64,000 nucleotides of DNA from an uncultured Acidobacteriota bacterium (GCA_963713825.1 CAVQNG010000014.1:1-64000), one strand, 5' to 3'. Positions 3,912 to 29,961 are shown, counted from the stretch's first letter. The notes: a model not told the origin generated them from the letters alone. Made by a program: numbers and translations.

Positions 3912-3996
3912 CAGAGAAAAGGGCAAACCTGCCGTGAGGCAGGGGCGCAAAGCCACGGGTCCGGGCGAAGCTCGACCGAGACCGCCGGGCTGCCAC
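3912..3996 (+). ncRNA. Cyclic di-GMP-I (GEMM-I) riboswitch upstream of the ECF sigma gene
   Basis: AAAAGGGCAAACCTGCC-GTGA-GGCAGGGGCGCAAAGCCACGGGTC...GAGACCGCCGGGCTGCC: GNRA-capped P2, GCAAAGCC junction and GCCGGGCTGCC 3' strand; P1 is weak. Confidence 0.88.
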
Positions 3997-4053
3997 GAGC
4001 GTCGCTAGCCGATGGAGTCGAGTGACTCCACCGAAGCGGGGGAGTTTGCACGG

Positions 4054-11459: not shown

Positions 11460-13146
11460 ATGCTCCGTCTTGCACGCTTGTTGGCAGTCGCAGGATCTGC
11501 CGGACTGATCGCGATGTCTGGCTGGTCGGCCGTCCAAGCCGAATCTCCGCTCTTCAACGATTTGAGTGCAGGATCGGGTCTGGAGATCGTCACATATTCG
11601 GGCAGCGTCGAGAAGCCGCACATCCTGGAGTCGGACGGGAACGGCGTCCTGGTGCTGGACTACGACGGTGATGGGTTCCAGGATCTCTACTTCGTCGCCG
11701 CATTCAGGATTCCTCGAGACGAGGAGGCGATGGAGGAGCGGAGTGCCCTCTACCGGAATCTCGGCAACGGCACCTTCGTTGAGGTGAGCCAGCAGGCAGG
11801 TGTTGCTGCCCGGGTGTACGGCCACGGTGGCTGTGTCGGGGACTACAACGCAGATGGACTGCCCGACATCTACCTGACCGCTTACGGGGACAATATTCTC
11901 TATCGCAACAACGGCGACGGCACCTTCGAGGATGTCACCGAGGAGGCTGGTGTGGCCGAGCCGGCCTGGAGCATCGGGGCCACATTCCTCGACGCCGATG
12001 GTGACGGCGACCAGGACCTCTATGTCGGCAACTACATCGTGGCTCCATGGGAGGAGATCCTGGCGGCTCGGCGAACGCGACGCTGGCGGGGCAAGGTCGA
12101 AGTGATGGATGGGCCGCGAGGACTTGTCGAGGCGCCGAACACCTTCTACCTCAATCGCGGGTGACGGCACATTCGAGGATGCCACCGAATCGTCAGGGCT
12201 GGCGGAAGGGCGACTCGGTTACACCATGGGGGTCGTCAGCTTCGACTACGACAACGATGGCGCTCCTGACATCTACGTGGCCAACGACAGCACGGCCAAT
12301 CGGCTCTACAAGAACCACGGGGACGGCACCTTCGAGGAAGTGGGCACCTGGACCGGAAGCTCCTACAACGCCGATGGCAGGGTGCAGGGCAGCATGGGCG
12401 TGCACTACGGCGACTACGACGGTGACGGCTGGTTCGACATCGGGGTCACCAATTTCGCTCTCGACTACTACGCCCTGTACCGCAACCTGGAAGGTGAGCT
12501 GTTCCAGGACGAGTCTTTCAACTCCCAGCTCGCAGTGACGAGCTTCGCGCCTCTGGGATGGGGTGTCCTGTTCTTCGACGCGGACAACGATCGGGATGTG
12601 GATCTCTACTTCTCGAACGGGCACATCTACCCGCAAGTGGATGAGGACGATTCCCTGGGCGAGACCTACCGCCAGCACAATCAGCTGCTGCTGAACGAGG
12701 CCGGCAAGTTTCACGATGTCAGTGGCGAGGCTGGCGGTGCGTTCGAGGTGAAGCTATCGAGCAGGGGAGCTGTCTTCTTCGATCTGGAGAACGACGGTGA
12801 TCTGGATCTCGCAGTGAGTAATCAGGACGAGAAGCCCAACCTCTTCGTGAACAGCTCACCGCCCAACTCTTGGCTCCGGGTCGACCTGCGTCAAACCTCG
12901 GGCAACCACCGTCCTCTGGGCTCGAGAGTCGAGGTGGAGATCGAGGGGTCGAAGCAGATCCGCGAAGCTACTTCCGGCGGTTCGTACGCTTCGGAGCTCG
13001 ACCCACGACTCCATTTCGGTTTGGGTTCAGCAACAAAGGTCGATCGGATGTCGATTCGATGGCCGGATGGACGGCAGTCTGCATTCGTGGATCTACCAGC
13101 AAATCGGCAGGTGGTGATCTGGCGGCCGGAGGGGCAGGTCGAGTGA
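11460..13146 (+). CDS. CRTAC1-family (FG-GAP/ASPIC-UnbV) secreted protein, split by a +1 indel near 12160
   Basis: Repeated DYDGDGxxDxY and LYRNxGDGTFxDVT motifs; C-terminal GGSYAS..RLHFGLG..IRWPDG (ASPIC/UnbV). ORFs 11460..12164 and 12109..13146 join at aatcgcGggtgac. Confidence 0.88.
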
Positions 13147-15212: not shown

Positions 15213-15580
15213 TGGAGGCTCGTCCGGGTGGCCACGAAAGCGTCCTGGGGCTTGAGACCTGGGTCCTGGGCGACTCTCTGCTCATCGTTGGATGTACTGG
15301 GCCACGCACGAGGCTCTCCCCCGTCGTCCTGGGCCTCCGGCTGGAGACCTCGTACGCGGCCTTGCACCTTTGTACTCCTAAGCCCTTAAGCCACTATGCC
15401 CTCAATGGTGCCCGAGGTTCGTTCGGGTGGTTCGTCAGGGGGTGCCACGTCGAGCGCAGCGCTAGGACCATCGCAGAGCACACACGATCCGGCGCGATGA
15501 CGTGACAAGGTGGCGGCCCGTCCGTTGCAGTCTGAGTAGCCGACGCCGTCCCCTAGGCGAGCCACCTGGACGGACCTCCA
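15213..15580 (+). repeat. Composite structured intergenic repeat, copy 1 (outer arm 15213-15233, 8-mer tract ~15377-15401, core ~15402-15580)
   Basis: Core alignable with 20668-20850 and 27325-27510; terminal inverted arms GAGGTTCGTTCGGGTGG / CCACCTGGACGGACCTC. Confidence 0.85.
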
Positions 15581-15604
15581 GACGACTCACTTGCGGTAAT
15601 AGGT

Positions 15605-18370
15605 TCAAGGTCTGTCGTGTAAGACGAGTGCTTGCCAGTTCAGGATCGCGTTCCAGAGGAAGCGGTGGTCCGAATGGTTCAGGTAGCGGTGCATGGGGTT
15701 GAAGTTATAGGCCACGATCGTGCCCTTACCGGTCGGTACCGCCAGGATGGCCGGGCGGCCCTTTAGCGCCGCTTCTCCCTTCGCTCCGCCGCTCACGACC
15801 ATCGGCTGAGACTCCGCTCCCCATTGTAGGACCACATTGCTTTTGTCTACCTCTCCATCCAGACATGAGGTGCAGTAGGCCATCCTCAGCCAGTGCTTTG
15901 GGACATCGTAGACGGCGTAGTTGAATCGAAACACCGAAGGGGTCTCGCTGTAGCCATAGGCGATCGGGTGATCGGATTGCAGGAAGCTGGCACGGATCTC
16001 AGCGCCTGGAGTCGAGATGCCCGTGTCATGGGCTCGCCGGACATTGCGAATCATGCCGCCGTCCAGAGCCAGAGAAGAGCCATTGCCCAGTGTCAGGAGG
16101 AGCCCTCCCTGCTCGACGAATGCCTGCAGGCTTGCGAGCCCAGACCATCCGATACCACCAGTGATGTCCTCAGACTCCGCGGGCTCCCCATGGCTCGGAA
16201 ACTCCGCAGTCCTGGTGAAGGGCATGGGTCCGTCAACGGACTGAATACCGTGAATCTGGGAAGTTAGCTCCAAATCGACGTTGCCGTAGACGATGACATC
16301 GACCTTCTCTTCGAGGCCGCCGGCTCGAATGTCTTCATCCCTCAGGTAGGTATAGGGCACGCCGCGCTGGTCGAGTGTGTAGCGCAGCCACCCAATGGAA
16401 TCGGTGTCGGCCCAGGGGACCCAAACGCCCAGACGAGGGATCTCGGCTGCATGGCTCTCGACGCTTGGCATTGCGGTGCGAGCTATCGAAGTCGAGTGCC
16501 AGGTCCTGTCGCCACAGTCTCCAGGGCGTCGATCGAGGCCATCCTGTCCCGGCAGGATCCAGCTGCCGGCAGGGTAGTCCTTGCCGCCGGACGAAAAGTC
16601 CGTCTCGGCGATCTCCACAGAGAAGTCAGCCAGGCGGAAACGTGCTGCCAACAGGCCCTCCTGACCCTGGTCGCTGAGTAGAAAGACGGGGCCCGATCCC
16701 GAGATCCTGCCCTCGGCGCGAGCCTCACCCTCGATCGGCGAGAGCGAAACCTCGAGGATTCCACGGTCGTCGATGGGAATTGTCTCGACACCGTAGTGGG
16801 TGGGGAGGTTCCAGGTCACATCGTCGTAGGGCAAGTGCTCCGTGTCGAACGGGAATTCCTGCAGCTCCAGGAGGTCCACCGCATAGTTCCGGTAGGGCTG
16901 GTCCAGTCGAACAACATAGCTGCCGGTGGGAAAGGAACCTTCGTTTGTCGAGAAGGCCTCCGTCGACTGTGAGACCTCGATCCCCTGCCTCAGGAGCACG
17001 TTCACCATCTGAGAGGCGAGCCGCCGATCGCTCTGATCCGCAGGGATGACGAAAGCGTAGGGGCTTCCCGCAACGCCCTTCTGCCACGAGTTGTAGCCCT
17101 TGCGGTAGAAGTTGAGGAGCATGGCGTCGGCGTTTTTGGCCGTGTAGTCGAGGATCACCAACAGTGCAGTCTGCTGGTAATTGACGTTGTCGCGCATCGA
17201 CCATCGCAGGGTCCCTTCGACAGGCATGGGGCGAAACCACCTGCGGGTCATTTCGTCCCCCCAGACGGTTCTCATCATCGTTTCAGCGCCGGCGTTGCCC
17301 AACGTCTCGTAGCCGCGCCCAATGCTGTTGTGGTTCATGCCGACCGAATCCAGGTAGTGGTGGCCGTACCCTTCGCCGAAGTCCCACGTCCAAACTCCCG
17401 GCATGCCCATCGCTGTCATCGTTGTCACCTCGTGAAAGCTCATCTCGAGGAACTCACTCGTCACGATGGGATCGAGATTCGGGTTGTAGGGGCCGGTACC
17501 GTTCCAGGTTTGCAGCAGGAACATGGCCTCATGAAGGTCATGAACAACGGTCGGGTGGTAGTCGAAGAACATCTTGTAGACGGCTCGCACCAGACCCTGG
17601 GTCTGTTGGTGGGCATCCCGATTGGCATCGACGAAAAGGTAGCGCCCCCAATAGGGCGGTGACTGGCGCGGCAGCTCACCGTATTCGGTCTTGCCTTTGA
17701 GGTAGCGGTAGAACCAGTCCGCCACCTTGTCTCGGCCATCCGGGTTGGAGACTGGATTGATGAGTACGACGAGCTGTTCCCGGATCTGCTGGATCATTGG
17801 CTGGTCGGAGACCGCCAGTCGGTAGGCCAGTTCCATTGCCATCTCTGGACTGCCGGTCTCATCGCCATGAATTGCGGCGTTGATGTAGTAGATCGGTCGA
17901 GCGTGAGCGATGATCTCCTCGGCCCTGGTCAGATCCGTCTGCCTCGGATCCGCGAGGGCTGCAGTCGCGGCTTTCAGCGACTCGACGGACCCGATCCCGT
18001 CCTCGTCGGCAATCACAACCAGCAGGATCTCGCGGCCCTCCTCGGTCTCACCGATGATCTCGACCTCGACTCGGGGCGAGGTGCGGGCCAGCTCTCGCAT
18101 GTAGCCGTAGATTGTCTCCGAGTGGGTCAGCTCGCCAGGCGTGCCAGGGATGTAGCCCAGGAACTCGGCCGGCGAAGGGACGGTGTTGGAGTCGGGGGTA
18201 TAGGCGACCCAGGGGCTCAGGTAGGCCGGATCACTGGTGAATTCGGCGATGGCCTCAGCCGAACCGGGCTCCGCTGAGTCAGGGGCGAAGGGTCCATCCT
18301 GGGCTACCAGGGTGATGGGCAGGGCCAGTGCCAGAAGCAGTGCGAAGAGGCAGGCCGCGGATCGTTGCAT
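15605..18370 (-). CDS. M14 family zinc carboxypeptidase with C-terminal GATase-like domain, secreted
   Basis: Signal peptide, AAIHGDE (HxxE), NPDGRD, DANRD, DLHE; a short out-of-frame-looking patch near 16480-16530. Confidence 0.85.
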   Translation of the reverse strand: MQRSAACLFALLLALALPITLVAQDGPFAPDSAEPGSAEAIAEFTSDPAYLSPWVAYTPDSNTVPSPAEFLGYIPGTPGELTHSETIYGYMRELARTSPRVEVEIIGETEEGREILLVVIADEDGIGSVESLKAATAALADPRQTDLTRAEEIIAHARPIYYINAAIHGDETGSPEMAMELAYRLAVSDQPMIQQIREQLVVLINPVSNPDGRDKVADWFYRYLKGKTEYGELPRQSPPYWGRYLFVDANRDAHQQTQGLVRAVYKMFFDYHPTVVHDLHEAMFLLQTWNGTGPYNPNLDPIVTSEFLEMSFHEVTTMTAMGMPGVWTWDFGEGYGHHYLDSVGMNHNSIGRGYETLGNAGAETMMRTVWGDEMTRRWFRPMPVEGTLRWSMRDNVNYQQTALLVILDYTAKNADAMLLNFYRKGYNSWQKGVAGSPYAFVIPADQSDRRLASQMVNVLLRQGIEVSQSTEAFSTNEGSFPTGSYVVRLDQPYRNYAVDLLELQEFPFDTEHLPYDDVTWNLPTHYGVETIPIDDRGILEVSLSPIEGEARAEGRISGSGPVFLLSDQGQEGLLAARFRLADFSVEIAETDFSSGGKDYPAGSWILPGQDGLDRRPGDCGDRTWHSTSIARTAMPSVESHAAEIPRLGVWVPWADTDSIGWLRYTLDQRGVPYTYLRDEDIRAGGLEEKVDVIVYGNVDLELTSQIHGIQSVDGPMPFTRTAEFPSHGEPAESEDITGGIGWSGLASLQAFVEQGGLLLTLGNGSSLALDGGMIRNVRRAHDTGISTPGAEIRASFLQSDHPIAYGYSETPSVFRFNYAVYDVPKHWLRMAYCTSCLDGEVDKSNVVLQWGAESQPMVVSGGAKGEAALKGRPAILAVPTGKGTIVAYNFNPMHRYLNHSDHRFLWNAILNWQALVLHDRP

Positions 18371-18441
18371 GGTTCCCCCCTTGAAGATCGGCACAGTCGC
18401 AGAACCTATAATCTATCCGGTCGGGGTGGTGTGGCACAGCC

Positions 18442-20500
18442 ATGACATTGTCAGGACATCGAATGCGGTCGAGGACTCTCTGCTGGCTGGTCTTCATTCT
18501 TGGAATGACCGGCATCGCGAGAGCCGTGGCCGACTCCTCGCCCCCGAATCTTCTCCTGATCACCATCGACACCCTGCGCGCCGATCACCTGAGCTGCAAT
18601 GGGGCGCAGAACGTCGCTACTCCAAACCTGGACCGGCTTGCCGCTGATGGCGTCAATTTCACTCGCGCCCGATCCCCGGTCCCCCTTACCCTGCCGTCGC
18701 ATGCCTCGATCTTGACGGGCAACTATCCACCGACCCACGGCATTCGGGACAACGCGTCCTCTCGGTTGGCAGACAGCCAGCGCACCCTGAGTGAAGCCCT
18801 GCGAGCCTCTGGCTACGAGACAGCCGCTTTCCTGGGTAGCTTCGTCCTGGACCGTCGCTTTGGCCTGGCGCAGGGATTCGAGACCTACGACGATCAGGTT
18901 GCCAGGGCTCCAGAGATGCTGGAGAGCCTCGAGGCCGAGAGGAACGCGGGCGCTGTGTTCGACGCTTTCGAGTCCTGGTTCTCAGCCAGGTCGGGCGACG
19001 CGCCATTCTTCGCCTGGCTGCACTTCTACGATCCCCATGCGCCCTATTTGCCCCCTGAGCCTTTCGCCAGTCGCTTCCAGGGCGATCCCTATGCGGGAGA
19101 GGTCGCTTATGTGGATCAGATGGTAGGCAGAGTCCTTGCCACCCTCGAAGACCGGGACATGCTGCGGGAAATGGTCGTCGCGATCGTCGGCGACCACGGT
19201 GAGGGTCTGGGAGAGCACGGTGAGCGGACCCATTCGCTCCTCATCTACAACTCCACCCTTCACGTTCCGATGATCCTGTTCGCTCCGGGACGGATCGAAG
19301 CCGGGGCTCGTGTCGAATCTCTGGTCCGCACTATTGATCTGGCACCGACTCTGTTGGAGTTGGTGGGCCATCAACAGGAATTTGGGGAAGGACAGAGCCT
19401 GGTGCCCCTGATCGAGAGAGGTGAGGGGGACAGCGAAAGCAGGGAAGCCAACCTGATCCATGCCGCCTACAGCGAGTCGCTCTACGCTCAGAGAAACCTC
19501 GGCTGGAGCTCAGTGCGAGGATTGGAGACCGGGACCCACCGGTTGATCCTCGGGCCCGACCCGGAGCTCTACGACCTCTTGGTAGACCCGGAGGAGCAGC
19601 ACGACCTGGCGGAGGCTCGGCCCGAGCTCATCAGGGAGCTGAACCTTCTCTTCGACCAGATGGCCCTGGAGCCGGTAGGGGAGAGAGGCGAGTCGAAGAC
19701 CCCGGCCATGGACCCCGAGATTGTCGAGCAGCTCCGGAGTCTGGGCTACCTGTCGGGATCCTCGGCTTCGAGTGGAGTGATTGGGAAGGATGGTGAGGTC
19801 AATCCTCGGAAGTACATCGGCGACTGGGAGCGAATCGAGGAGGGTCTGCGGTACTACGCCCAGGACGACTTCGCGAACGCCGCCGTGCGATTCGCATCGG
19901 TCCTGAGGGTCCACCCTGAAACTCCGCTCCTGTACGAGTACCTCGGCAGCTGCTACGAGCGCTCGGGGAAAGCTGACGAAGCCGAGAAGGTCTATCGCAG
20001 CGGCCTCGACATGGGGTTGGATTCTTCGGAGTTTCATCTCGGATTGGCGCGGATCTCACATGGCAAGGGGCGAAGGCCGGGCGGCCGAGAAGGAGCTGTT
20101 GAACGCGATCGAGCTCGGACCCTTTCAGTGTCGTTGCTCATCACACCCTGGGTGATGTCTATCGGGGACGCAAGGACTTCAACAGGGCACAGGAACATTA
20201 CCGAGCCGCCCTCGGGATCAACCCCTCCTATATCTATTCGTGGAACGGACTCGGCATGAGCCTCGGCAGCCAGGGTGACGACGCCGGCGCGCTCGAAGCC
20301 TTCCAGAAGGCCGTGGATGTGTCGCCAGAGAGTCCTTTGCCCTACATGAACCTCGCCGTCCAGCTGGAACGCATGGAGCGAGTCGACGAAGCGCGAGTCT
20401 GACCTACCTGAGAGGTTCCTGGTCCTCGCCGAAGGCGAAGCAGAGCCTGGACCGCGAGCGCTCCCTTGGCCGAAGCGGCCCTCGACGCGCCTGGGTCCTG
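18442..20500 (+). CDS. Sulfatase-like (alkaline phosphatase superfamily) hydrolase with C-terminal TPRs; frameshifted after ~20065
   Basis: LITIDTLRADH, TLPSHASILTG, HFYDPHAPY, GDHGEGLGEH; TPR sequence continues in other frames to ~20500 (end approximate). Confidence 0.8.
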
Positions 20501-20537
20501 AATCGGCTAGGGCCTCGGCTCCGATCAACTGGCGTGC

Positions 20538-20890
20538 GGAGGCCCGTCCGGGTGGCCCGTGAAAGCGTCCTGGGGCTTGGGACCTGGGTCTGGGCTGTGG
20601 GACTGATCGTGCGGGGGACCGACGTGGGGCCCTCTACCTCACTGCTCATTGCCTACTGCTCACTGCCTCAACGGTGCCAGAGGTTCGTCCGGGTGGTTCG
20701 ACAGGGGGTGCCGAGTCGAGCGCAGCGCAAGGTCCATAGAAGAGCACAAGAGATGGGGCGCGACCACGAGACAAGGTGGCGGCCTGCCCGTTGCAGTCTG
20801 AGTAGCCGTCGCCGTCCGCCTGCGGACCACCCGGACGGACCTCTGGCACCAACAGGGGCATAAGGGCATTGGGGCAGTTGGGGCTAGGGG
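20538..20890 (+). repeat. Composite structured intergenic repeat, copy 2 (core 20668-20850, 28-bp inverted arms 20673-20700 / 20823-20850), flanked by 7/8-mer tracts
   Basis: GGTGCCAGAGGTTCGTCCGGGTGGTTCG pairs with CGGACCACCCGGACGGACCTCTGGCACC with only two G-T wobbles; left part 20538-20590 resembles 15214-15265. Confidence 0.88.
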
Positions 20891-21015
20891 GTGAGTCAGT
20901 AGTCGGAATCTCGAGGTGTCTCGAGGGTGGCAGATCGGGCCATGGGTCTCCCTCGTCGGAGGGGCATGGTCGGGTGAGGCCGCAGACGGGGGAGATCCCT
21001 GGTCCGATCGGCCGT

Positions 21016-21122
21016 CTCAACCCTCAAGCCCTCAGAGAACGGCCGGAGGTACGACGGACGGCTCAACCCCAAGCCCTCAGAGATCAGGCGGCGCAACGCG
21101 CCGGATGCCTCAACCCCCAAGG
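21016..21122. repeat. Short spaced direct repeat CTCAACCC(T)CAAGCCCTCAGAGA, two full copies plus one partial
   Basis: Copies at 21016-21038, 21062-21083 and partial from 21109 (overlapping the metF stop), separated by 23- and 25-nt unique spacers. Confidence 0.6.
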
Positions 21123-22071
21123 CTGGGCCGAGGATAGAGCCCCAGCCGCTTGACGATCTCGGGCACGGCGGCGGGCCAGCCGATGGCCATGATGTGGAGG
21201 CCCCGGACGCCTTCGATCTCACGGACCTGCTCGCCGATCTCGCAGCACAGATCCAGGCCAGCCTTCTCGGCATCTTCGTCCGAGAGTCCCTCCATGCGCC
21301 CGATCACGCTGTCGGGCACCTCCATGCCGGGCACCTTCGTCGCCATGAACTGGGCAGCCTTCAGCGAGCGGACGGGGCCGATGCCCGCCATGATTGCGGT
21401 CCTTTCGTGCAGCCCCATATCCACGGCGCGTTTCATGTACTCCCGGAAGCGATCGACGTTGAAGACCAATTGCGTCTGGATGAATTGGGCGCCTGCTTCG
21501 ATCTTCTTGGCCAGTCGGTGAGGTCGAAAGTCGTAGGGTGGCGAAAAGGGGTTGGCGACGGCTCCGACGAAAAAATCGGGCTTGATCTTGGGGATCTTCT
21601 TGCCATTCTCGAAGACCTGGTCGTCGGTCATCCTGCGAATCATCCGCACCAGATTGACCGAGTCGATGTCGGCAACGTTCTTGACGTGGGGATGATCGCC
21701 ACACGACGGATGATCCCCGCTGAGGGCCAGGACCGTGGTGATGCCGAAGGCCGACGCACCCAGCAGGTCGGACTGGATACCGAGCCGATTGCGGTCCCGA
21801 CAAGTGAATTGCACGACGGGCTCGAGCCCGGCCTGCTTCAAGGCGATGCCGGAGGCGAGACTGGATGTGTGAACTCGCGCCGACTGGTTGTCGGTGACGT
21901 TGTAGACATCGCCATAGCCCCGCAGCAGCTCGATCTGGCGTTGGAGAGCGGGCATGTTCGGGCCGATGGGAGGAGAGACCTCGACGGCCAGAGGAAAATG
22001 CCCGGCCTCGAGTAGTCGGGCCAGATTGCTGGCTGATCCGGGCTCCAGAGATCTGTGGCTGATTCGACCAT
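21110..22071 (-). CDS. metF: Methylenetetrahydrofolate reductase (MetF, MetVF type)
   Basis: VEVSPP, NVTDNQSA, QFTCRDRNRLGIQSDLLGA, LSGDHP, KKIEAGAQFIQTQ. The likely ATG at 22071 is out of frame with the body by an indel near 22050. Confidence 0.88.
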
Positions 22072-22073
22072 TG

Positions 22074-22562
22074 TCAGTTGCTCTTGCTCGGTTTGGCCGC
22101 GGGTGGTTCCTGACTGGCCCATTGGTCCCGTCCCGTGGCGAATGTGACCCAGGAGGCTTCACCTTCGAGGCGCCAGTCCAGCGCCGGGTTCAGACGGTGG
22201 ATTTCATCCTCCCAGGGCGTCAGCGCGCTGCGCTCGATCGCTTTGACCCAGACGCAGTCTTTGTCGGGATACACCTCGCAATGCCCGTCAGCCCGCACGC
22301 CGCCGCAGGGGCCGTTACGAATCTGCTTGGGGCAGGTCATGGGGCAGGTCATGCCGGTGTAGTGGAGGACACATTGTCCACACATCTGGCAATCGAACAG
22401 CGACCGCTTGACGGGTTCCTCGAACCAGCCCACAGCCTTCGTGGATCGTTCGAGCCCCATCTTCTCGAACCGTCCTCGCAGCATTCCGAGTACACGTTCG
22501 GTCGCCTGCCAGGCCCAGACCAGTGGCCGAGGATGATCTTGGAGGTAGTTACGGAAGGACAC
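22074..22562 (-). CDS. metV: MetV-like Cys-rich subunit (methylenetetrahydrofolate reductase C-terminal-domain family)
   Basis: CQMCGQCVLHYTGMTCPMTCPKQIRNGPCGG...CEV...CVW; directly upstream of metF; GTG start inferred. Confidence 0.82.
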   Translation of the reverse strand: MSFRNYLQDHPRPLVWAWQATERVLGMLRGRFEKMGLERSTKAVGWFEEPVKRSLFDCQMCGQCVLHYTGMTCPMTCPKQIRNGPCGGVRADGHCEVYPDKDCVWVKAIERSALTPWEDEIHRLNPALDWRLEGEASWVTFATGRDQWASQEPPAAKPSKSN

Positions 22563-22581
22563 GGGTTGCCGCCTCAGTGGA

Positions 22582-24126
22582 CTAGTCGGCTTGCATGGCT
22601 CGCGCAGCCAGAGCGCCGGGAGCGCAGGTGATCCCGCCGCCTGGATGGCTGCCGCTGCCACACAGATACAGTCCTTCGAAAGGAGTGCGGTATCGAGGAC
22701 ACTCTGGCACCGGTCTCACTACCAACTGATCGATTGCGTGCTCGCCATGGTAGAGGTGCCCACCCGTGACGCCGTAGCCCGCCTCGAGATCCGCTGGGCT
22801 CGCAATCTGCGCCGCAACGATGTACTGCTCCATGCCCGGGGCGTAGCGATCCAGGGCCATCATGGCCGCATCGAAGAACTCTTCCTTCCGAGCGTCGCTC
22901 CATCCCCCCTCCAACTCGTACGGTGCGAAATGAGCCTGGATCGAGAAGACGTGGTGACCTGCGGGTGCAAGGGCGGGGTTCTCGACCGTGGGTGCCCAGA
23001 TATCGAGAAAAGGCTCCACCGAGAACAGGCGGTACTTGGCCGGATCGAAGGCTTTCTCCAGGTCGTCGATGTGCTCCCCGGTGCGGACGATCTCTGGCTG
23101 GAAATCAGGCCGACAACGGAATTGCGGATAGCCGTTGAGTGCCAGGTTGATCTTGGCGACGACCCCCCGAGAGCGATACCCCAGCAGGTTCTGCTCGAAC
23201 TGGATGGGCAGGGCGCGGGCGGGTAGGAGGTCCAGGAACAGGTGCTTCGGATGGCAGGAAGCGGCCACGCGGTCGGCTTCCAGCACTTCGCCATTGGCGA
23301 GGCTGACACCCTCGATCTTGCCCTCGCCGATCTTGAGATGGCTGACTGCCGAGCCGGTGCGGAATTCGACGCCCTGCGCCCGGGCGGCTTTCTCGAGCGC
23401 ATCGGTCAGGGCCGCCGGTCCTCCGGCGACGGCACTATCGAACAGGATCTCCGCCATCAGCAGGTTCAAGTTGCTGCCCGGTGACCAGGGGCCGGTCATG
23501 GTATTCAAGATGGCCGGTCCCGCCACGGCGACACGCAGGATCTCGGACTCGAACCACTCGTTCACCCAGTCGGCGACGCACATCGGGACGATCCGGAAGA
23601 TCTCCATCATGTCGGTCTTGCCGAGCATGCGCAGGCTGAGAGCCTTCTTGCCAAGTCCCCAGAGATCTGCGATCCCGAGGTTGTCGGTGTCGGCCGGCGC
23701 TTCGTCGAAGAGGCTCCGGAAGACGGGCGCGATCTTGCGGATGAAGGCGCGATACTGCCGATAGCTGTCGGCGTCCTGTCTCGAGTGAGCGCCGATTTCT
23801 TTCTGGGCTGCACGGGGATCGTGGAAGTGAAGATAACCCGGACCGTCGATCTGTGGCACGAACACTGGTGGAGCCGACTTGCGCGTCTCGAGACCGTGCT
23901 TGCGAAGCTCGAGATCGTCAATCACCCATTTGCGTACGGTGGTGGTGTCGTGCAGAACTCCACCGGTTCGGTAGCCCGGATGGAACTCCTCGCTCGCGGC
24001 CAGCCCTCCGATGGTCTCCCGGCTCTCGACGACCACGACCTTCCTACCGGCTTTCGCCAGATAGGTTGCTGTGGTCAGGCCGTTATGGCCCGCACCGATG
24101 ACGACGACGTCGTAGCGACTACTCAT
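22582..24126 (-). CDS. Phytoene-dehydrogenase-like FAD oxidoreductase (COG1233 / PYROXD2-like)
   Basis: YDVVVIGAGHNGL, GGLAASEE, YRTPFEGLYLCGSGSHPGGGITCAPG. Confidence 0.88.
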   Translation of the reverse strand: MSSRYDVVVIGAGHNGLTTATYLAKAGRKVVVVESRETIGGLAASEEFHPGYRTGGVLHDTTTVRKWVIDDLELRKHGLETRKSAPPVFVPQIDGPGYLHFHDPRAAQKEIGAHSRQDADSYRQYRAFIRKIAPVFRSLFDEAPADTDNLGIADLWGLGKKALSLRMLGKTDMMEIFRIVPMCVADWVNEWFESEILRVAVAGPAILNTMTGPWSPGSNLNLLMAEILFDSAVAGGPAALTDALEKAARAQGVEFRTGSAVSHLKIGEGKIEGVSLANGEVLEADRVAASCHPKHLFLDLLPARALPIQFEQNLLGYRSRGVVAKINLALNGYPQFRCRPDFQPEIVRTGEHIDDLEKAFDPAKYRLFSVEPFLDIWAPTVENPALAPAGHHVFSIQAHFAPYELEGGWSDARKEEFFDAAMMALDRYAPGMEQYIVAAQIASPADLEAGYGVTGGHLYHGEHAIDQLVVRPVPECPRYRTPFEGLYLCGSGSHPGGGITCAPGALAARAMQAD

Positions 24127-25706
24127 AGCTCACCCGATTTCAGGATGGTTCTGGCGGCGAGTTGACCCGGTGCACCCATGATGCCGCCGCCCGGGTGGGT
24201 ACCCGAGCCGCTCATCCAGAGGTTCTTGATGGGTGTCTTGTACCGGGAGTAGCCGGCTGCCGGTCGCTGGAAGAGAAGCTGTTCCAGGCTCAGCTCGCCC
24301 TGGAAGATGTTGCCCTCGCTCAGCCCGTACTCTTGCTCCATGTCCCAGGGAGTGACGACCTGTCGGTGCAGGATGCTCTTCCTGAATCCTGGGGCGAACT
24401 CCTCGATGGTGTCGGTCACCGTGTCGCCAAAAGCCTCCGCCTTCTCGGGCCACATTTCCGGTCCCTCCTTCAACTTGTAGGGAGCGTACTGAACGAAACA
24501 GGAGATGACGTGCTTGCCAGGCGGGGCGACGCTGGGATCCAGTAGGGATGGCACAACCAGGTTGATGTACGGGCGACTCGAGTAATTGCCGTACTTGGCC
24601 TCGTCGTAGGCTCGCTCCAGGTAGTCGATGCTGGGTGCGATGGCGACATCGCCGCGCAGGTGCGCCGTGCCTTCGCGACCTTCGAACTGAGGGACACGAT
24701 CCACCGCGTAATTGACCTTGCCGGAGCTGCCACGAAATTTGTAGCGCTGGATGCGTTGCGCAAAATCGTCATCGAGGTGCTCTTCCCCGACGAGACCGAA
24801 GTAGGTGAGTCTCGGGTCGCAGTTGGAGACCACGAGTTTGGCGTCCAGCTCGTCGCCGTTTTTCAGCACGACTCCCGTGGCGCGTCCATTCTTGATGCGC
24901 ACCTTTTCGACGGGAGCTTCGGTACGAATCTCGACGCCGAAGCTCTCGGCGGCGCGCGCGCAGGCCATGCTCACACCCCCCGTGCCGCCTTTCGAGAAGC
25001 CCCACGATCGAAAGGCACCGTCGATCTCTCCCATGTAGTGGTGCAGAAGGACGTAGGCCGTTCCCGGTGAATGAGCTCCAAGGTAGGTTCCGATGATGCC
25101 ACTGCAGGCCATGGGTGCCTTCAGGGCGTCGGACTCGAACCATCGATCCAGAAAGTCGACGCCGCTCATTGTGAGCAGCTTGGCCTGAAGGTCGAGAAAA
25201 CTGGTGCCGCCGCTGAAGGACTGGCCCATCCGCAGCATCGCCAGCAGCTCTTTCGGCATGAGTGAGGTCGGGTCGGGGGCGGGCGAGTCGATGATATTGC
25301 GGGCGAAGCGCGCCATCTTCGTCATCGTGAGACTGAACTCGGGATAAATCTCGGCGTCTTTGGCGCTGAATCGTGAGATCTCATGGCGGGTGCGCCCCGC
25401 CTCGGGCCAGCGACAGAGACCTGGTCCGCCGACATGGGGCGTGAAGGATGTCTCCAGCGGAATGAGCTCCATCCCGTGGCGGGCCAGCTCCAGCTCGCGA
25501 ATGATCGAGGGTCGAAAGAGGCTGACCACGTAGGAGAGCACCGAGAAGGTGAAGCCAGGAAAGACCTCTTCACTCACGGCGGCTCCGCCCACCAAGTGCC
25601 GGCGCTCCAGGACCAGGACCTCGTGCCCGGCCTTGGCCAGGTAGGCGGCAGCGATCAGGCCGTTGTGGCCGGCGCCGATGACGATGGCATCGTAGCTCTT
25701 GCTCAT
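24123..25706 (-). CDS. Phytoene-dehydrogenase-like FAD oxidoreductase (COG1233 / PYROXD2-like)
   Basis: MSKSYDAIVIGAGHNGL, GGAAVSEE, GNIFQGEL, GSGTHPGGGIMGAPG; start overlaps the upstream stop (ATGA). Confidence 0.9.
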   Translation of the reverse strand: MSKSYDAIVIGAGHNGLIAAAYLAKAGHEVLVLERRHLVGGAAVSEEVFPGFTFSVLSYVVSLFRPSIIRELELARHGMELIPLETSFTPHVGGPGLCRWPEAGRTRHEISRFSAKDAEIYPEFSLTMTKMARFARNIIDSPAPDPTSLMPKELLAMLRMGQSFSGGTSFLDLQAKLLTMSGVDFLDRWFESDALKAPMACSGIIGTYLGAHSPGTAYVLLHHYMGEIDGAFRSWGFSKGGTGGVSMACARAAESFGVEIRTEAPVEKVRIKNGRATGVVLKNGDELDAKLVVSNCDPRLTYFGLVGEEHLDDDFAQRIQRYKFRGSSGKVNYAVDRVPQFEGREGTAHLRGDVAIAPSIDYLERAYDEAKYGNYSSRPYINLVVPSLLDPSVAPPGKHVISCFVQYAPYKLKEGPEMWPEKAEAFGDTVTDTIEEFAPGFRKSILHRQVVTPWDMEQEYGLSEGNIFQGELSLEQLLFQRPAAGYSRYKTPIKNLWMSGSGTHPGGGIMGAPGQLAARTILKSGEL

Positions 25707-26896
25707 CACGACCTCTTTCTGGGTGGGTTGAAGAACGGGGTCGTCACTACGGTGGCGCCGACGACCTGGCGCCGGTACTCGACCGTGATTTCGAACTGCA
25801 CCCGGGTGCCGACCTTGGCAAACGGCGCCGCGACCTGGGCCAACGCCAGGTTCTTCTTGAGCGTCGGCGACCAGACTCCGCTGGTTGCCTGACCGATCCA
25901 GTTCTGATTCTCGTCGTACACCGGCCTGCCATCTCGCCAAACGTGAGCCGGCAGCTCCGGTGGCAGATCGAACTTGTCGAATGCCGCCTCCACCTCCTCC
26001 CAGTCCACGTCCAGCCCCACGAAGAGTCGCTTCGATCCCTCGGCCTTCTCTTTTCGAAGGGCGGCCTGGCCGGTGAAGGGCTCGCGATCGAGCTGGACCG
26101 CCCAGCCGAGGCCGAGCTCGTACGGCGAGTTCTTCTGATCCTCGATCAGGCAGTGGTTGGCGCTGTAGTAATCCACGCCGTTCATGATGAACCCGGCTTC
26201 GATGCGTGTCACATCCATGGCGTCGATGCCGCAGGGCAGCAGGTCGAACGGTTGCCCAGCCGCCATGACCGAGTCGTAGAGGCGCTCGGCGTGCCGGCTT
26301 TCGACCCAGATCTCGTACCCGAGGTCGCCGGTATAGCCGGTCCTGGAGATCCAGATCTGGGTTCCATCCAGGCGACAACGAACTGTGCCGAAGAAGCGCA
26401 GTGCATCCATGTCTGTGTTCACCACACTCGCGAGGATGTCTCTGGAAGTCGGTCCCTGCAGGGAGAGCGCTGCGAAGCGGGCCGTGCTGTCCTCGATGGT
26501 GACGTTGTAACCGCGGCTTTGACGGTCGAACCAGGAGAGAGAAGGTTCCGCTGAAGTGACTCTGTAGTAGTTCTCATCCAGACAGGAGACGGTTCCGTCA
26601 TCGATGACCTTGCCTTCGTCGTCGCACCAGCACAGGTACGTCACTCTTCCGACTTTCAGCTTGTGCAGGTCTTTGACGGTCAGCCGTGACAGAAACGCCG
26701 CTGCATCCGGACCGTGGACCTCGTACTTGAACAGAGGCGAGATGTCGATCAGGCCGGCGGAGTGGCGCAATGCGTAGTACTCGGAATCGTGTGTGGTGTC
26801 GTAGGTGGAGACTGTGTAGTACCCGGCCCAGTCCTTCCAGTTCATGCTGTAGCACAGCTCTGACGTACGCGAGTGAAAGGGCGTCGGTATAGGCAT
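25706..26896 (-). CDS. GcvT-family aminomethyltransferase-like (folate-binding) protein
   Basis: PTPFH, EYYALRHSAGLIDISPLFK, GKVIDDGTV, LQGPTSR, ISRTGYTGDLGYEIW, RIEAGF; AGGAGG RBS; no gcvH/gcvP nearby. Confidence 0.88.
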   Translation of the reverse strand: MPIPTPFHSRTSELCYSMNWKDWAGYYTVSTYDTTHDSEYYALRHSAGLIDISPLFKYEVHGPDAAAFLSRLTVKDLHKLKVGRVTYLCWCDDEGKVIDDGTVSCLDENYYRVTSAEPSLSWFDRQSRGYNVTIEDSTARFAALSLQGPTSRDILASVVNTDMDALRFFGTVRCRLDGTQIWISRTGYTGDLGYEIWVESRHAERLYDSVMAAGQPFDLLPCGIDAMDVTRIEAGFIMNGVDYYSANHCLIEDQKNSPYELGLGWAVQLDREPFTGQAALRKEKAEGSKRLFVGLDVDWEEVEAAFDKFDLPPELPAHVWRDGRPVYDENQNWIGQATSGVWSPTLKKNLALAQVAAPFAKVGTRVQFEITVEYRRQVVGATVVTTPFFNPPRKRS

Positions 26897-27085
26897 CCGC
26901 AACTCCTCCTACGAAACCAGCAGCTGGACCGTCGAGCAAGGATCTTCGATTCCGCCGGTGCGCTGCCACACCTGACGGGGTACGCCGAGAATACCCCTAA
27001 GCGTAGGTCGAGGGGAACACCCGAAACCCACCGTCTGAAGCGGCCGGCGTCTCTGCCGGCCGTTGGTGCCGTTGCATGCGGCGAA

Positions 27086-27510
27086 TGTCGCGTAGAGGTC
27101 CGTCCGGGTGGTCCGTAGGCGCTGGCCGAAGGGAACTGGATCATTGTCAATGGGGGTTCGCCGTGCGGCCCCCAGGGGGCTATCCTCCCTTCCGCTGCAA
27201 GAACCCCCATGGAGGTCCCCACGGCGAACCCTTGGCGTCGCTGTAGTTCCCCCGCTCATTTGTTACCCCTAAGCCCTTACGCCCCTAGGCCCTCAGTGCC
27301 CATTGCCTCGAGGCCTAACTGCCTTCAACGGTGCCCGAGCTCCGTTCGGGTGGTTCGTCAGGGGGTGCCACGTCGAGCGCAGCGCAATGGCCATCGCAGA
27401 GCACAACAGATGAGGCGCGATGACGTGACAAGGTGGCGGCCTGCCCGTTGCAGTCTGAGTAGCCGACGTCGTCCCCCAGGCGGGCCACCCGGACGGGCCT
27501 CTACGCGACA
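27086..27510 (+). repeat. Composite structured intergenic repeat, copy 3 (outer arm 27086-27115, internal hairpin 27131-27251, 8-mer tract, core 27325-27510)
   Basis: TGTCGCGTAGAGGTCCGTCCGGGTGGTCCG pairs with CGGGCCACCCGGACGGGCCTCTACGCGACA (30 bp, two G-T); core alignable with copies 1 and 2. Confidence 0.88.
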
Positions 27511-27561
27511 ACGGTCTCAAATGAATGGGCCAAATGGCCGGCAAGGGCTGCGACGGATGGT

Positions 27562-29961
27562 TCAACCGTCGGACTGGATCTGTTGTGCTTCCGCTAGCGC
27601 TTGGTTGGCTTCGCGGGGGCGGCCGGTGCGATTTAGGATGTCGGCGAGAAGGAAGTAGCCGAGGGGCCCGGAGCGATGCTTTGGGTCGGCCGCCAGGCCC
27701 TGCCGAGTCAGGTCTTCGGCTCGGGCGAGATCGTCGCCCTGGTCCATGAGCAGCTTCGCCAGGTAGAAGTAGCCTCGAGCGAATTCGGGATTCGAAGCGA
27801 TCGCCGCTTCCCACATCTCCACCTGGCGGCCTCCATCACCCATTCCGCCATAGAGACGCCCGAGATTGAACTGTGCCTGGAAGTGGTCCGGTGCCTGCTC
27901 GATGACTTCCTCGTAAAGGGTCACGGCACGGCGCAGGTCGCCTCCCTCTTCGAGGAGCACCGCGAGATTGAACTTGGCTGGCGCCATGTCGGGTTTTGCG
28001 GCGATAGCTTTCTCGAAGGCCGCAAGAGCCTCGCTCGTTCTGTCCTCGAGAGTCAGGAGCTCTCCGAGCTGATTGAGAAGAACCGGCGCTGGTTCGTCTG
28101 TTTCGGTGGTCGCTTGAAGGAGCTCGATCGCCTCTGGACGTCTCTCGAGCTCGATCAGAATCTCGACAGTGCCGAGAGTCGCCATGGTGTCCCCGGGCTC
28201 CAAAGCGAGGACCTGCTGGAAGCCGAGAAGAGCCTCTTCGGCCATATCCAACTGACGATAGGCGTGAGCGAGACCCCGGATCGAGGTGATGTGGTCGTCT
28301 CGAACTTCAAGAGCTCCCCTGAAATGTTCGACAGCCTCCTCGTAGCTCTCTTCCTGTACTGCGATGGAGCCGAGCATTTGATGGGCATCGACGACTGAGG
28401 GGTCGGTGGAGAGAACTTCCTCCAATTTCTGCTTCGCCTCTTGCGTCTTCTCCTTGCCCAGGTCGCTCTGGGCCGACATGACGAGTTGGTGCAAGCCGAT
28501 GCGCTCCTTGGGATCGGTTCTGTCCCAGGCGTTCTCTTCGTCGACGTCGATCCCTCCACTTCCCGCCATGTAGCCGAGGGCTCGTAGCTGGAGCAGGGTC
28601 TCCTCATCGAGCTCGGCGGGCTCTACGGCAGCCGGTTCGTCACTCTTCAACTGCTCGACCATCAAATCGAGCTGGTCTTTGAGCTCCCGAGACATGCGTC
28701 GTTCCTCGAGCAGGATGTTGCTCTGCTCCAGAGGGTCGGCTGCCAGATCGTAGAGCTCGGGCTGTGGGGAGTCGATGAACTTGTACTGCCCTTTCCTGAG
28801 ACTCCGCAGCGGTGCCCAGCCGTAGTGGAGAAGGGGATACATCGATTCGGTGTAGATGGCTGACTCGAACTCGTCTACCGTCGTACCCTGGAGCAGAGGC
28901 ACTAGCGATTGGCCCTGCGCCTCTTCAGGGATCGGTTGGCCCACGATCTCGAGGATCGTCGGCATCAGATCGACATGACTCACGGCCTCATCCACGACCC
29001 GACCGGCGCCTTCCTGGCCGGGCAGTCGGATCATCAGCGGCACATGGACAGTGCTGTCATAGATGAAGAAGCCGTGGAATCCCTCGCGATGCTGACCGAG
29101 TCCCTCCCCATGGTCGGCAGTGAGGATCAGCAAGGAGCTGTCGAGAAGGCCGCGCTCTTCGAGAGCAGAGCGAAACTCGCCGATCAGGAAATCGGTGTAG
29201 GCGACCTCACCTTCGTAGGGGCGGTTCGGATACTGCGAACGATAGGGCTCGATCGGCTCATAGGGGTCGTGGGCGTCGTACAAGTGCAGCCAGAGGAATA
29301 GGGGCTGCTCGGGGCTAGAGTCCAACCAGCGAACGGCCTCCGCGATGGTGTCGGCGCCGTCCCTTTGAACGGACCCCAGGTTGGCGGACTCGTTCTCCTT
29401 CAGGTCGAACTCGTCGAAGTAGGTGCCGAAGCCGCGGCCGATGCCCCAACGGGCGTCGAGAACGAATGCGCTGACGAAACCCGCGGTGGATCGACCACCC
29501 GCGGACATCTCCTCCGCAAGAGTCGGCAACGAGCTCCCCAGCACGTACCCGACGTTCTCCCGAACTCCATGCTGAGGCGGATAGCTGCCCGTCATGATGG
29601 AGCTGTGCGCCGGCAGGGTAAACGGCACAGTACTCGCCGCGTTGGTGAAGAGGATGCCCTCGGACGCCAATCGATCCATGTTGGGTGTTGCGACCCTGTC
29701 GGAACCGTAGGCACCGATCCGATCGGCTCGCAGGGTATCCACGGTGATGAGAATGACGTTCAGCTCGGTCGTCGCGACGGCGGAAAGAAGGCTGGCGTCC
29801 TGGTGAGGTGCCTCCTGTCGCCTGCGCTCGCCCCGCATCGACAGAAAGATGGCGACAACAGCTGCGACGACCGCGAGTGCGATGATGGCTGTAACCGCCT
29901 TGGAGCGGATCTGCGCACTGCCGTTCCTGCTCTTCGAGCGCCTCTGGGCTTGGTTGGTCAT
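27562..29961 (-). CDS. Membrane-anchored sulfatase-like hydrolase with C-terminal TPRs
   Basis: N-terminal TM, LITVDTLRADR, TLPAHSSIMTG, HLYDAHDPY, ADHGEGLGQH, then multiple TPRs. Confidence 0.88.
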   Translation of the reverse strand: MTNQAQRRSKSRNGSAQIRSKAVTAIIALAVVAAVVAIFLSMRGERRRQEAPHQDASLLSAVATTELNVILITVDTLRADRIGAYGSDRVATPNMDRLASEGILFTNAASTVPFTLPAHSSIMTGSYPPQHGVRENVGYVLGSSLPTLAEEMSAGGRSTAGFVSAFVLDARWGIGRGFGTYFDEFDLKENESANLGSVQRDGADTIAEAVRWLDSSPEQPLFLWLHLYDAHDPYEPIEPYRSQYPNRPYEGEVAYTDFLIGEFRSALEERGLLDSSLLILTADHGEGLGQHREGFHGFFIYDSTVHVPLMIRLPGQEGAGRVVDEAVSHVDLMPTILEIVGQPIPEEAQGQSLVPLLQGTTVDEFESAIYTESMYPLLHYGWAPLRSLRKGQYKFIDSPQPELYDLAADPLEQSNILLEERRMSRELKDQLDLMVEQLKSDEPAAVEPAELDEETLLQLRALGYMAGSGGIDVDEENAWDRTDPKERIGLHQLVMSAQSDLGKEKTQEAKQKLEEVLSTDPSVVDAHQMLGSIAVQEESYEEAVEHFRGALEVRDDHITSIRGLAHAYRQLDMAEEALLGFQQVLALEPGDTMATLGTVEILIELERRPEAIELLQATTETDEPAPVLLNQLGELLTLEDRTSEALAAFEKAIAAKPDMAPAKFNLAVLLEEGGDLRRAVTLYEEVIEQAPDHFQAQFNLGRLYGGMGDGGRQVEMWEAAIASNPEFARGYFYLAKLLMDQGDDLARAEDLTRQGLAADPKHRSGPLGYFLLADILNRTGRPREANQALAEAQQIQSDG

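Follow-up and report, generated by a model that had tools for sequence, protein, structure and literature searches.

The window analysed here is a stretch of 64,000 nucleotides (nt) from an uncultured Acidobacteriota bacterium (CAVQNG010000014.1:1-64000, assembly GCA_963713825.1), and it carries three copies of an uncatalogued structured repeat element, all on the + strand. A repeat finder delimits them as one family of three direct copies of 190 nt, at 15397-15586, 20663-20852 and 27320-27509, with copies 2 and 3 being 76% and 88% identical to copy 1. Covariance models place the copies at 15404-15584, 20670-20849 and 27327-27507 and detect no fourth copy in the window (3 matches). Both methods agree with a reading made earlier from the sequence alone (the sequence-only reading), which had noticed three structured repeats in the same orientation. 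Copy 1 scores 190.9 bits with model R1, built from copies of the window's genus, and 128.2 bits with model R2, for which 42 trimmed copies of several genera were aligned with MAFFT. A scan of the window with the 4227 models of Rfam 15 gives no match on the copies at the gathering thresholds, so the family is indeed unrecognised; at E<=10 only chance-level matches appear around copy 1, and at E<=1 four distant copies yield nothing credible. The element is a multicopy module that is structured, constrained on one strand, conserved across a bacterial order, and amplified and mosaic in the genus of the window.

In each copy a short 5' tag precedes a closing stem, P1, that leads into a Y-shaped core. 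Copy 1 (15404-15584) has the tag GGTGCC at 15407-15413, P1 arms at 15414-15434 and 15558-15578, and its Y core at 15426-15566. In copy 3 (27327-27507) the tag lies at 27330-27336, the arms at 27337-27357 and 27481-27501, and the core at 27349-27489. Copy 2 (20670-20850) has its arms at 20680-20700 and 20823-20843 and its core at 20692-20831, and its tag, GGTGCCA (20673-20679), is paired to a TGGCACC (20844-20850). In all three copies the closing inverted repeat measures 21 base pairs (bp), and these seven additional pairs extend it to 28 bp in copy 2. The description of the mismatches by the sequence-only reading, as nearly all G-T pairs at varying positions, stands, with the addition of one C-C. 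P1 has 17 Watson-Crick and 4 G-T pairs in copy 1 (positions 6, 10, 12 and 18), 19 and 2 in copy 2 (positions 6 and 19), and 16 and 4 in copy 3 (positions 5, 10, 18 and 19) together with the C-C; the three copies hold no A-C pair in P1. Homology between copies is bordered by the GGTGCC tag on the 5' side and by ..CCTC on the 3' side. In four sediment and salt-marsh metagenome runs, contigs that contain other copies part from copy 2 exactly at 20672/20673 and 20843/20844, and DNA depth over the repeat is about 40-60 times that over unique sequence.

For copy 1, the predicted folding energy of the + strand is -92.8 kcal/mol (z = -3.17; none of 200 shuffles as good), versus -77.1 kcal/mol for the - strand (z = +0.80; 162 of 200 shuffles as good). 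The fold consists of the closing stem P1, a short P2, and a three-way junction with two arms, P3 and P4. In alignment A2 these occupy columns 11-31/155-175 (P1), 36-39/147-151 (P2), 40-49/95-104 (P3) and 106-114/136-144 (P4), and an inner GCGC/GCGC helix is added to them. The register of P3 is set by the pair with the highest mutual information (C-G 35, U-A 21, G-C 4). This arm continues with either tandem G-A or two Watson-Crick pairs, followed by the GCGC/GCGC helix and a hypervariable loop. Pair 44-100 alternates between G-A (22 copies), A-U (9) and U-A (5), and pair 40-104 between U-A (30) and C-G (6). P4 is the interior stem that had been read as GGTGGCGGC with GCCG.CG.C, and it is real; its loop carries a conserved AGUC. 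The GCGCAGC motif called invariant is so in the three window copies. Its proposed identity as a d(GCGNAGC) mini-hairpin fails: other genera read GCGCATGGC or GCGCCTGGC, and the first GCGC pairs with the distal GCGC in the inner helix. The structure is 94.7% paired in 36 copies, versus 34-50% when the partners are slid.

A distinctive characteristic of the element is the contrast between its core and its arms once other genera are compared. There, the arm sequences are entirely different yet still pair, and the junction and loop motifs are conserved. The covariation called for by the sequence-only reading is supported on two alignments. In the one fitted to the model, which comprises 8 copies of the window's genus and 28 of four other genera, both sides vary in 46 of 53 pairs, with a covariation score of 0.567 versus 0.175 shuffled and 0.06-0.10 slid. 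In the alignment made by MAFFT only, from the 42 trimmed copies, 19 of 22 pairs vary on both sides and the score is 0.414 versus 0.131 shuffled and 0.045-0.128 slid; because copies within a genome are related, such shuffle controls overstate significance. The 22 proposed pairs are 92.1% paired in the latter alignment, from which RNAalifold, unaided, recovers P3, the inner GCGC helix and P4; the inner helix (31-34/70-73) is 98.8% paired in the 42 sequences. A conserved fold with compensatory changes, the generic mark of a structured RNA, is thus present among copies that are related within genomes. In two genomes of other genera, G023 and G146, copies share 71-74% identity in the core and 31-34% over the 22 outermost nt of either side (stem ends and flank). 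Nevertheless, the arms of one copy pair with each other at 23.3 of 34 positions, versus 18.6 (standard deviation 2.2-2.4) for arms taken from different copies. The outer arms are near random but complementary within a copy; therefore, constancy resides in the core, and pairing is all that is required of the closing stem. Outside the window's genus, the element is a copy-specific closing stem around a conserved core.

The mode of variation within stems shows which strand is selected. Across 43 pairs in 61 distinct copies (n = 2,623 stem cells), 2132 are Watson-Crick, 433 G-U, 15 A-C, 41 other and 2 gapped. Events were counted by Fitch parsimony over 46 pairs on a FastTree phylogeny of the 61 copies. 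Changes from Watson-Crick to G-U number 72, of which 64 fall on terminal branches, and those from Watson-Crick to A-C number 14 (11 terminal); 52 events lead from G-U back to Watson-Crick, and 15, not all of them two-sided, from one Watson-Crick pair type to another. In unpaired columns the transitions are symmetric (G>A 55, C>U 53, A>G 48, U>C 37), and therefore mutational strand bias does not explain the excess of G-U over A-C. Taken together, the asymmetry in stems and the symmetry outside them lead to the conclusion that one strand is selected to fold. As the sequence-only reading had suggested, selection acts on the folding of the + strand and not on a double-stranded inverted repeat.

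This result makes it very improbable that the element is an ordinary double-stranded MITE (a miniature transposable element with inverted repeats) moved by a DDE transposase on its terminal inverted repeats, with the fold being incidental. Such an asymmetry cannot arise on duplex DNA, and in other genera the arms vary by copy around a constant core. The inverted terminal arms, the many intergenic copies and the existence of a second family with the same ends do favour a MITE. However, the genome contains no longer element with these ends, and thus no autonomous insertion sequence (IS) that shares the terminal inverted repeats as in a classical MITE family, and a target duplication is not seen at the five orthologous sites compared. 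Genome-wide, paired arms lie 111-448 nt apart, save one pair at 972 nt and one at 1491 nt. The wider of these two marks a copy into which an unrelated IS481-like element has inserted, and the remaining pair in the range of 0.9-1.5 kb is a chance pairing.

How far the family extends depends on the sensitivity of the search. By BLAST, the element is confined to the genus (five of five congeners, but none of the 35 genomes taken from the rest of the family and order). An exact-pattern scan of the genomes of 185,579 species returned 29 loci in five metagenome-assembled genomes, all titled Thermoanaerobaculia or Acidobacteriota. Model R1 finds weaker full-length matches in other genera. With R2, whose order tallies include one unpublished genome (G006), the family is present in 42 of the 151 genomes sampled within the order and in 7 of its 12 families: 19 of the 22 genomes of the window's own family have it, matches occur in six further families, and many genomes of the order hold at least 21 copies. 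A phylum-wide covariance-model sample of Acidobacteriota outside the order gave none among 147 genomes, and distant blastn searches of plasmid and phage collections gave no match.

Some genomes of other genera have peculiarities of their own. In G023 and G058, a second sub-type, whose core starts GGAACGCTG, stands head-to-head with a type-1 copy at a distance of 30-260 nt (L119:1294-1469, L138:1063-1239, L206:1789-1927 and L220:1801-1941). Copies in G146 (L180, L182, L185, L190 and L193) often adjoin another interspersed repeat ending ..CTCAGGATGAC.., and a second type of flank in that genome has G-rich tracts on either side.

In the genome of the window (G000, a 5.42-Mb assembly), a profile made from the three window copies gives 96 matches (51 +, 45 -). 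The family of three in the sequence-only reading thus grows to 78 near-full copies; mean identity among the 61 distinct copies of standard length is 80%. Two of the 96 matches duplicate copy 1 exactly. They lie where contigs C13 and C16 end, and these contig ends are identical to the window region 15215-15620 and represent assembly redundancy at the repeat. Contigs C1 (414 kb) and C34 (156 kb) hold no copy, versus about 14 per Mb in the rest of the assembly, and may be another replicon or mis-binned.

Copies of this genome are embedded in mosaics of other short repeats. Among 70 anchored copies, 62 have the 5' tag GGTGCC, 50 are preceded, within 80 nt upstream, by two or more units of a degenerate 8-nt tandem array, 40 share a common 3' tail, and 4 have the TGGCACC end that lengthens the stem. 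An extra arm 150-420 nt upstream is found in 16 of the 70, including all three window copies, in which it precedes the copy by 150-250 nt. The extra arm of copy 1, at 15215-15240 (+), repeats the right arm in reverse complement and forms with the copy a composite of 364 nt; this arm is the reason why the sequence-only reading started its feature at 15213. Those of copies 2 and 3, at 20539-20564 (+) and 27095-27120 (+), make composites of 305 and 407 nt. Inside the composite of copy 3 lies module C (27152-27232, +), a separate hairpin repeat that has the same sequence as the interior of the shorter 'R90' family; its core motif (27175-27193) occurs 29 times in the genome. A degenerate tandem 8-nt array stands directly 5' of copy 3 (27266-27320, +), similar but weaker arrays stand 5' of copies 1 and 2, and copy 2 is followed at 20851-20960 (-) by an inverted 8-nt array and an inverted 'module A' repeat (core 20929-20950, -). 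Genome-wide there are 102 such arrays, with a unit near CCCCTAAG, of which 44 are directly 5' of an element in the same orientation and 49 are far from copies. An isolated arm-like motif with 2 mismatches, lacking a partner or a core, occurs in the window at 61595-61611 (+).

It appears that copying does not need the core. In a second, shorter hairpin family, the arms, 5' tag and 3' tail are those of the element, but the interior of about 50 nt is different (e.g. G003:C16, G004:C28). Between these two congeners, the whole intergenic mosaic orthologous to window 27031-27562 is inverted. In addition, a sub-family of nine copies of 183-213 nt (e.g. C25:37660-37872), seen as nine arm pairs spaced 186-213 nt, has the tip of P4 swapped for a hairpin insert of 44-55 nt. 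This sub-family has itself multiplied and also has many copies in G005. Its insert has the same inverted ends and the same position as a full IS481-like element (a 343-amino-acid rve-type open reading frame), the one that splits a copy at G000:C3:766486-767976; the insert has the look of an IS remnant that arose by deletion and was carried along afterwards.

The repeat content of the orthologues of the three window sites differs across the five congeners. Site 1 lacks an element in the congeners, site 2 has one in a single species, and site 3 is taken up by an inverted element, by the shorter family in one or the other orientation, or by variant copies in tandem. One other orthologous site is occupied in three species. 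Turnover between species is therefore observed, and a mobile element whose substrate is single-stranded DNA (ssDNA), like a REPIN or a PATE, has to be considered. Here the + strand hairpin and Y core would be acted on by a single-strand-specific enzyme of the host (e.g. HUH/Y1), cut beside GGTGCC and copied to new intergenic sites. The strand-specific, G-T-tolerant fold, the high copy number and the turnover all agree with such a route, as do a mosaic layout that resembles BIMEs and a 5' tag that is frequent in this genome and recurs in a distant family (G146).

A candidate enzyme is also at hand. Although the window holds no transposase, as the sequence-only reading had stated, this genome has four RAYT-like Y1 genes encoding 311-364 amino acids (G000:C3:1031156-1032097, C3:1152154-1153095, C3:1296426-1297358 and C5:482997-483905). 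They score 51-57 bits on NF047646 (cut-off 80), versus 17-21 bits on IS200, and the family is found in 35 of 41 relatives in the order, a count that includes G006. Here and in other genera, these genes are flanked by an inverted motif of about 11 nt that begins with AGGTGCC. A similar motif of 18 nt has about 15 further copies elsewhere in the genome. At the RAYT-like loci of relatives, GGTGCCA lies upstream of the start within 55 nt in 4 of 10 and within 215 nt in 7 of 10.

However, the distribution of the element does not follow these genes. G146 (95% complete, one contig) has no match to Y1_Tnp despite at least 21 copies, and G143 combines 28 Y1 matches with 11 copies. The 311-amino-acid RAYT-like family is not found at E<=1e-5 in G146, G023 and G107, three of five multicopy genomes tested. 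Within 1.5 kb of the four genes there is no arm motif of the element at <=3 mismatches, only chance-like matches with 4, and the sequences flanking the genes do not recur in the genome. GGTGCCA shows no genome-wide enrichment (1418 occurrences versus a median of 1108 for permutations), this genome has no PF07282 (TnpB) match, and the orientation of copies relative to GC skew is 37:37, without replication-strand bias. A 120-nt core kept across families also exceeds the conservation of REP hairpins. An ssDNA mobile element is a less probable reading than an RNA module but remains a serious rival to it. Co-occurrence, gene flanks and motif counts do not support a RAYT-type Y1 transposase as the mobiliser, and the REP/REPIN-HUH route put forward by the sequence-only reading is not borne out. 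Mobilisation by a reverse transcriptase is not supported either, RVT_1 being not found in the high-copy genomes G000 (96% complete), G004 (100% complete) and G020. Three IS110 genes are present in this genome.

The neighbourhood of the copies bears on whether they act within the mRNAs of adjacent genes. Gene context was taken from crude, purpose-made gene calls, with which 76 copies were evaluated in this genome. At least one gene 3' end adjoins 65 of the 76, and all three window copies, as had been noticed, are so placed. The 76 comprise 39 between convergent genes, 13 sense and 13 antisense copies in tandem gene pairs, and 11 between divergent genes. In other genera, several copies lie shortly upstream of TAnAAT-like boxes followed by a start codon (flanks judged by eye, uncounted). 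REP and ERIC elements have been described as protecting transcript ends or blocking read-through. A similar role in cis, at 3' ends or between cistrons, would fit the proximity to gene ends and the convergent pairs, a closing stem that is long and GC-rich, and the copies of other genera that would stand between a gene end and the next promoter. Nevertheless, such a role is unlikely. In tandem pairs antisense copies are as frequent as sense copies (5:5 in G023 and 3:2 in G146, besides 13:13 here), and therefore a role inside the neighbouring mRNA is not supported and a promoter of its own must be assumed for the element. Moreover, the three window copies have no U-tract after the stem, and a plain hairpin would suffice for such a role, leaving the conserved Y core and loops unneeded. 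Orientation is independent of the neighbouring genes and of the replication strand, as expected of a self-contained unit.

Among known systems, the closest are the REPINs and REPs with their RAYT (TnpA-REP) transposases (PMC3116915, PMC3733652, PMC5581495, PMC8266576). A REP is a hairpin of 20-40 bp tagged GTAG or CGTC at one end (PMC3733652). The element resembles REPs and REPINs in being multicopy, intergenic, hairpin-forming, non-coding, long-lived in its lineage and mosaic with other short motifs, in a genome that also has RAYT-like genes. It differs from them in its sequence-conserved three-way-junction core of 120 nt, its copy-specific stems, and a distribution that does not follow RAYT genes. 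Its tag is GGTGCC, and GTAG occurs only inside the P4 loop. A REPIN has two inverted, hairpin-forming halves that make one long hairpin; the arms of the element are inverted and pair, but they enclose the branched core of 120 nt instead of a short loop. REPs form mosaic BIME arrays, and a RAYT gene has REPs of its own family on its flanks; neither such flanking nor co-occurrence of RAYT and repeat across genomes is found here.

ERIC/IRU (about 127 bp, in enterobacteria), Correia/NEMIS, BOX and RUP are also structured repeats. ERIC-like repeats are imperfect palindromes of 100-200 nt that occur across genera in widely varying copy number and probably fold in transcripts; ERIC is not known to have a dedicated transposase. 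The element shares with this group its palindromic build and size, its conservation across genera and its variable copy number. However, there is no sequence relation, the host phylum is different, and the branched core co-varies across families with a closing stem that is copy-specific outside one genus. PATEs are gene-less derivatives of IS200/IS605 with strand-specific folded ends and without target duplication. The element is similar in its strand-specific folding, and no target duplication is evident at the sites compared, but it lacks TnpB in its genome, a Y1 gene beside its copies, and a lagging-strand bias in orientation. With the structured RNAs of Rfam, such as riboswitch aptamers, it shares a fold of several covarying stems in which nucleotides of the junction and loops are conserved; unlike them, it stands beside no particular gene consistently and reaches dozens of copies per genome. 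Three narrower assignments were rejected. A C/D-box or k-turn (sR22 match, E = 0.27) and a hammerhead-like core rest on motifs that are not conserved in other genera, and attC-like sites and single-strand origin signals have defining boxes or an orientation bias that the element lacks. The accessible portions of the literature on Thermoanaerobaculia repeats and on Acidobacteria RNA motifs contain nothing that describes it.

Two other sets of repeats are present in the window. Two c-di-GMP-I-GGC riboswitch aptamers, at 1622-1730 and 3913-3998 (+), score 68.2 and 67.0 bits, above the Rfam gathering thresholds, and constitute repeat family D3. At 11748-12362 (+), three direct repeats of 59 nt lie inside a coding region; judged by eye, they look like an FG-GAP/VCBS-type protein motif.

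Based on these comparisons, we tentatively favour a reading in which the folded + strand acts as an RNA module and has been amplified at the DNA level, in this genus, by way of its arms and flanks. The Y core would carry the function, with the closing stem needed only for pairing, and the RNA could serve as a compact module that binds a protein or a ligand. It would be made from a start of its own or by read-through. The rise to about 80 copies in the genus would be due to DNA-level copying that uses the hairpin arms and the flank tags of the surrounding mosaic repeats, and not the core. RNA is favoured as the active molecule because the branched core is conserved, G-A alternates with Watson-Crick pairs, the copy-specific stems covary, and copying is independent of the core. 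The data show the copies with their fold, the constraint on one strand, conservation throughout the order and turnover from species to species; the activity of the RNA, and the arms and flanks as drivers of copying, are what we infer from them.

Several observations weigh against this RNA-based reading. G-T tolerance and a conserved fold are equally expected of a folded ssDNA substrate, and the relatedness of copies within genomes, as said, inflates the contrast with shuffled controls. A consensus scan detected neither a sigma-70-like promoter nor an intrinsic terminator at the three window copies. No RNA run holding window 18500-28400 was found. Dozens of copies per genome are unusual for an RNA gene family, and in tandem contexts sense and antisense copies balance, at 13:13 here, 5:5 in G023 and 3:2 in G146, with 5:1 in four other genera, all by the same crude gene calls. 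As for the copying step, five orthologous sites (the three of the window, C3:998k and C3:1691k) show no clean empty site, being filled or occupied by other repeats, and neither a target duplication nor, around the copies of this genome, a repeat of flank letters is evident. Contigs of the four metagenome runs contain no empty allele either. No mobilising enzyme was found among the Y1/RAYT, TnpB and reverse-transcriptase candidates. A non-autonomous element and a structured ncRNA (non-coding RNA), the pair of alternatives named by the sequence-only reading, remain the right ones, and the evidence does not separate them.

A more far-reaching possibility, which we regard as doubtful, is that the Y core represents a new class of functional single-stranded module, made of RNA or of DNA, that has either a biochemical activity or a protein partner dedicated to it. 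Such a class would be order-wide in Thermoanaerobaculia and would multiply by an undescribed route that involves neither RAYT, nor reverse transcriptase, nor DDE-recognised ends, each copy having its own closing stem.

The interspersed repeats of bacteria (REP, ERIC, Correia) are usually simple hairpins whose conservation is credited to a transposase or left unexplained. The present element differs from them in its branched core with covarying stems, which is kept across several families of an uncultured order, in that one strand alone is under selection, and in that the usual mobilisers do not track it. It is therefore a tractable case for asking how gene-less structured repeats spread and whether they carry a function of their own. 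In these sediment bacteria, its covariance model can annotate about 1-2% of the intergenic DNA.

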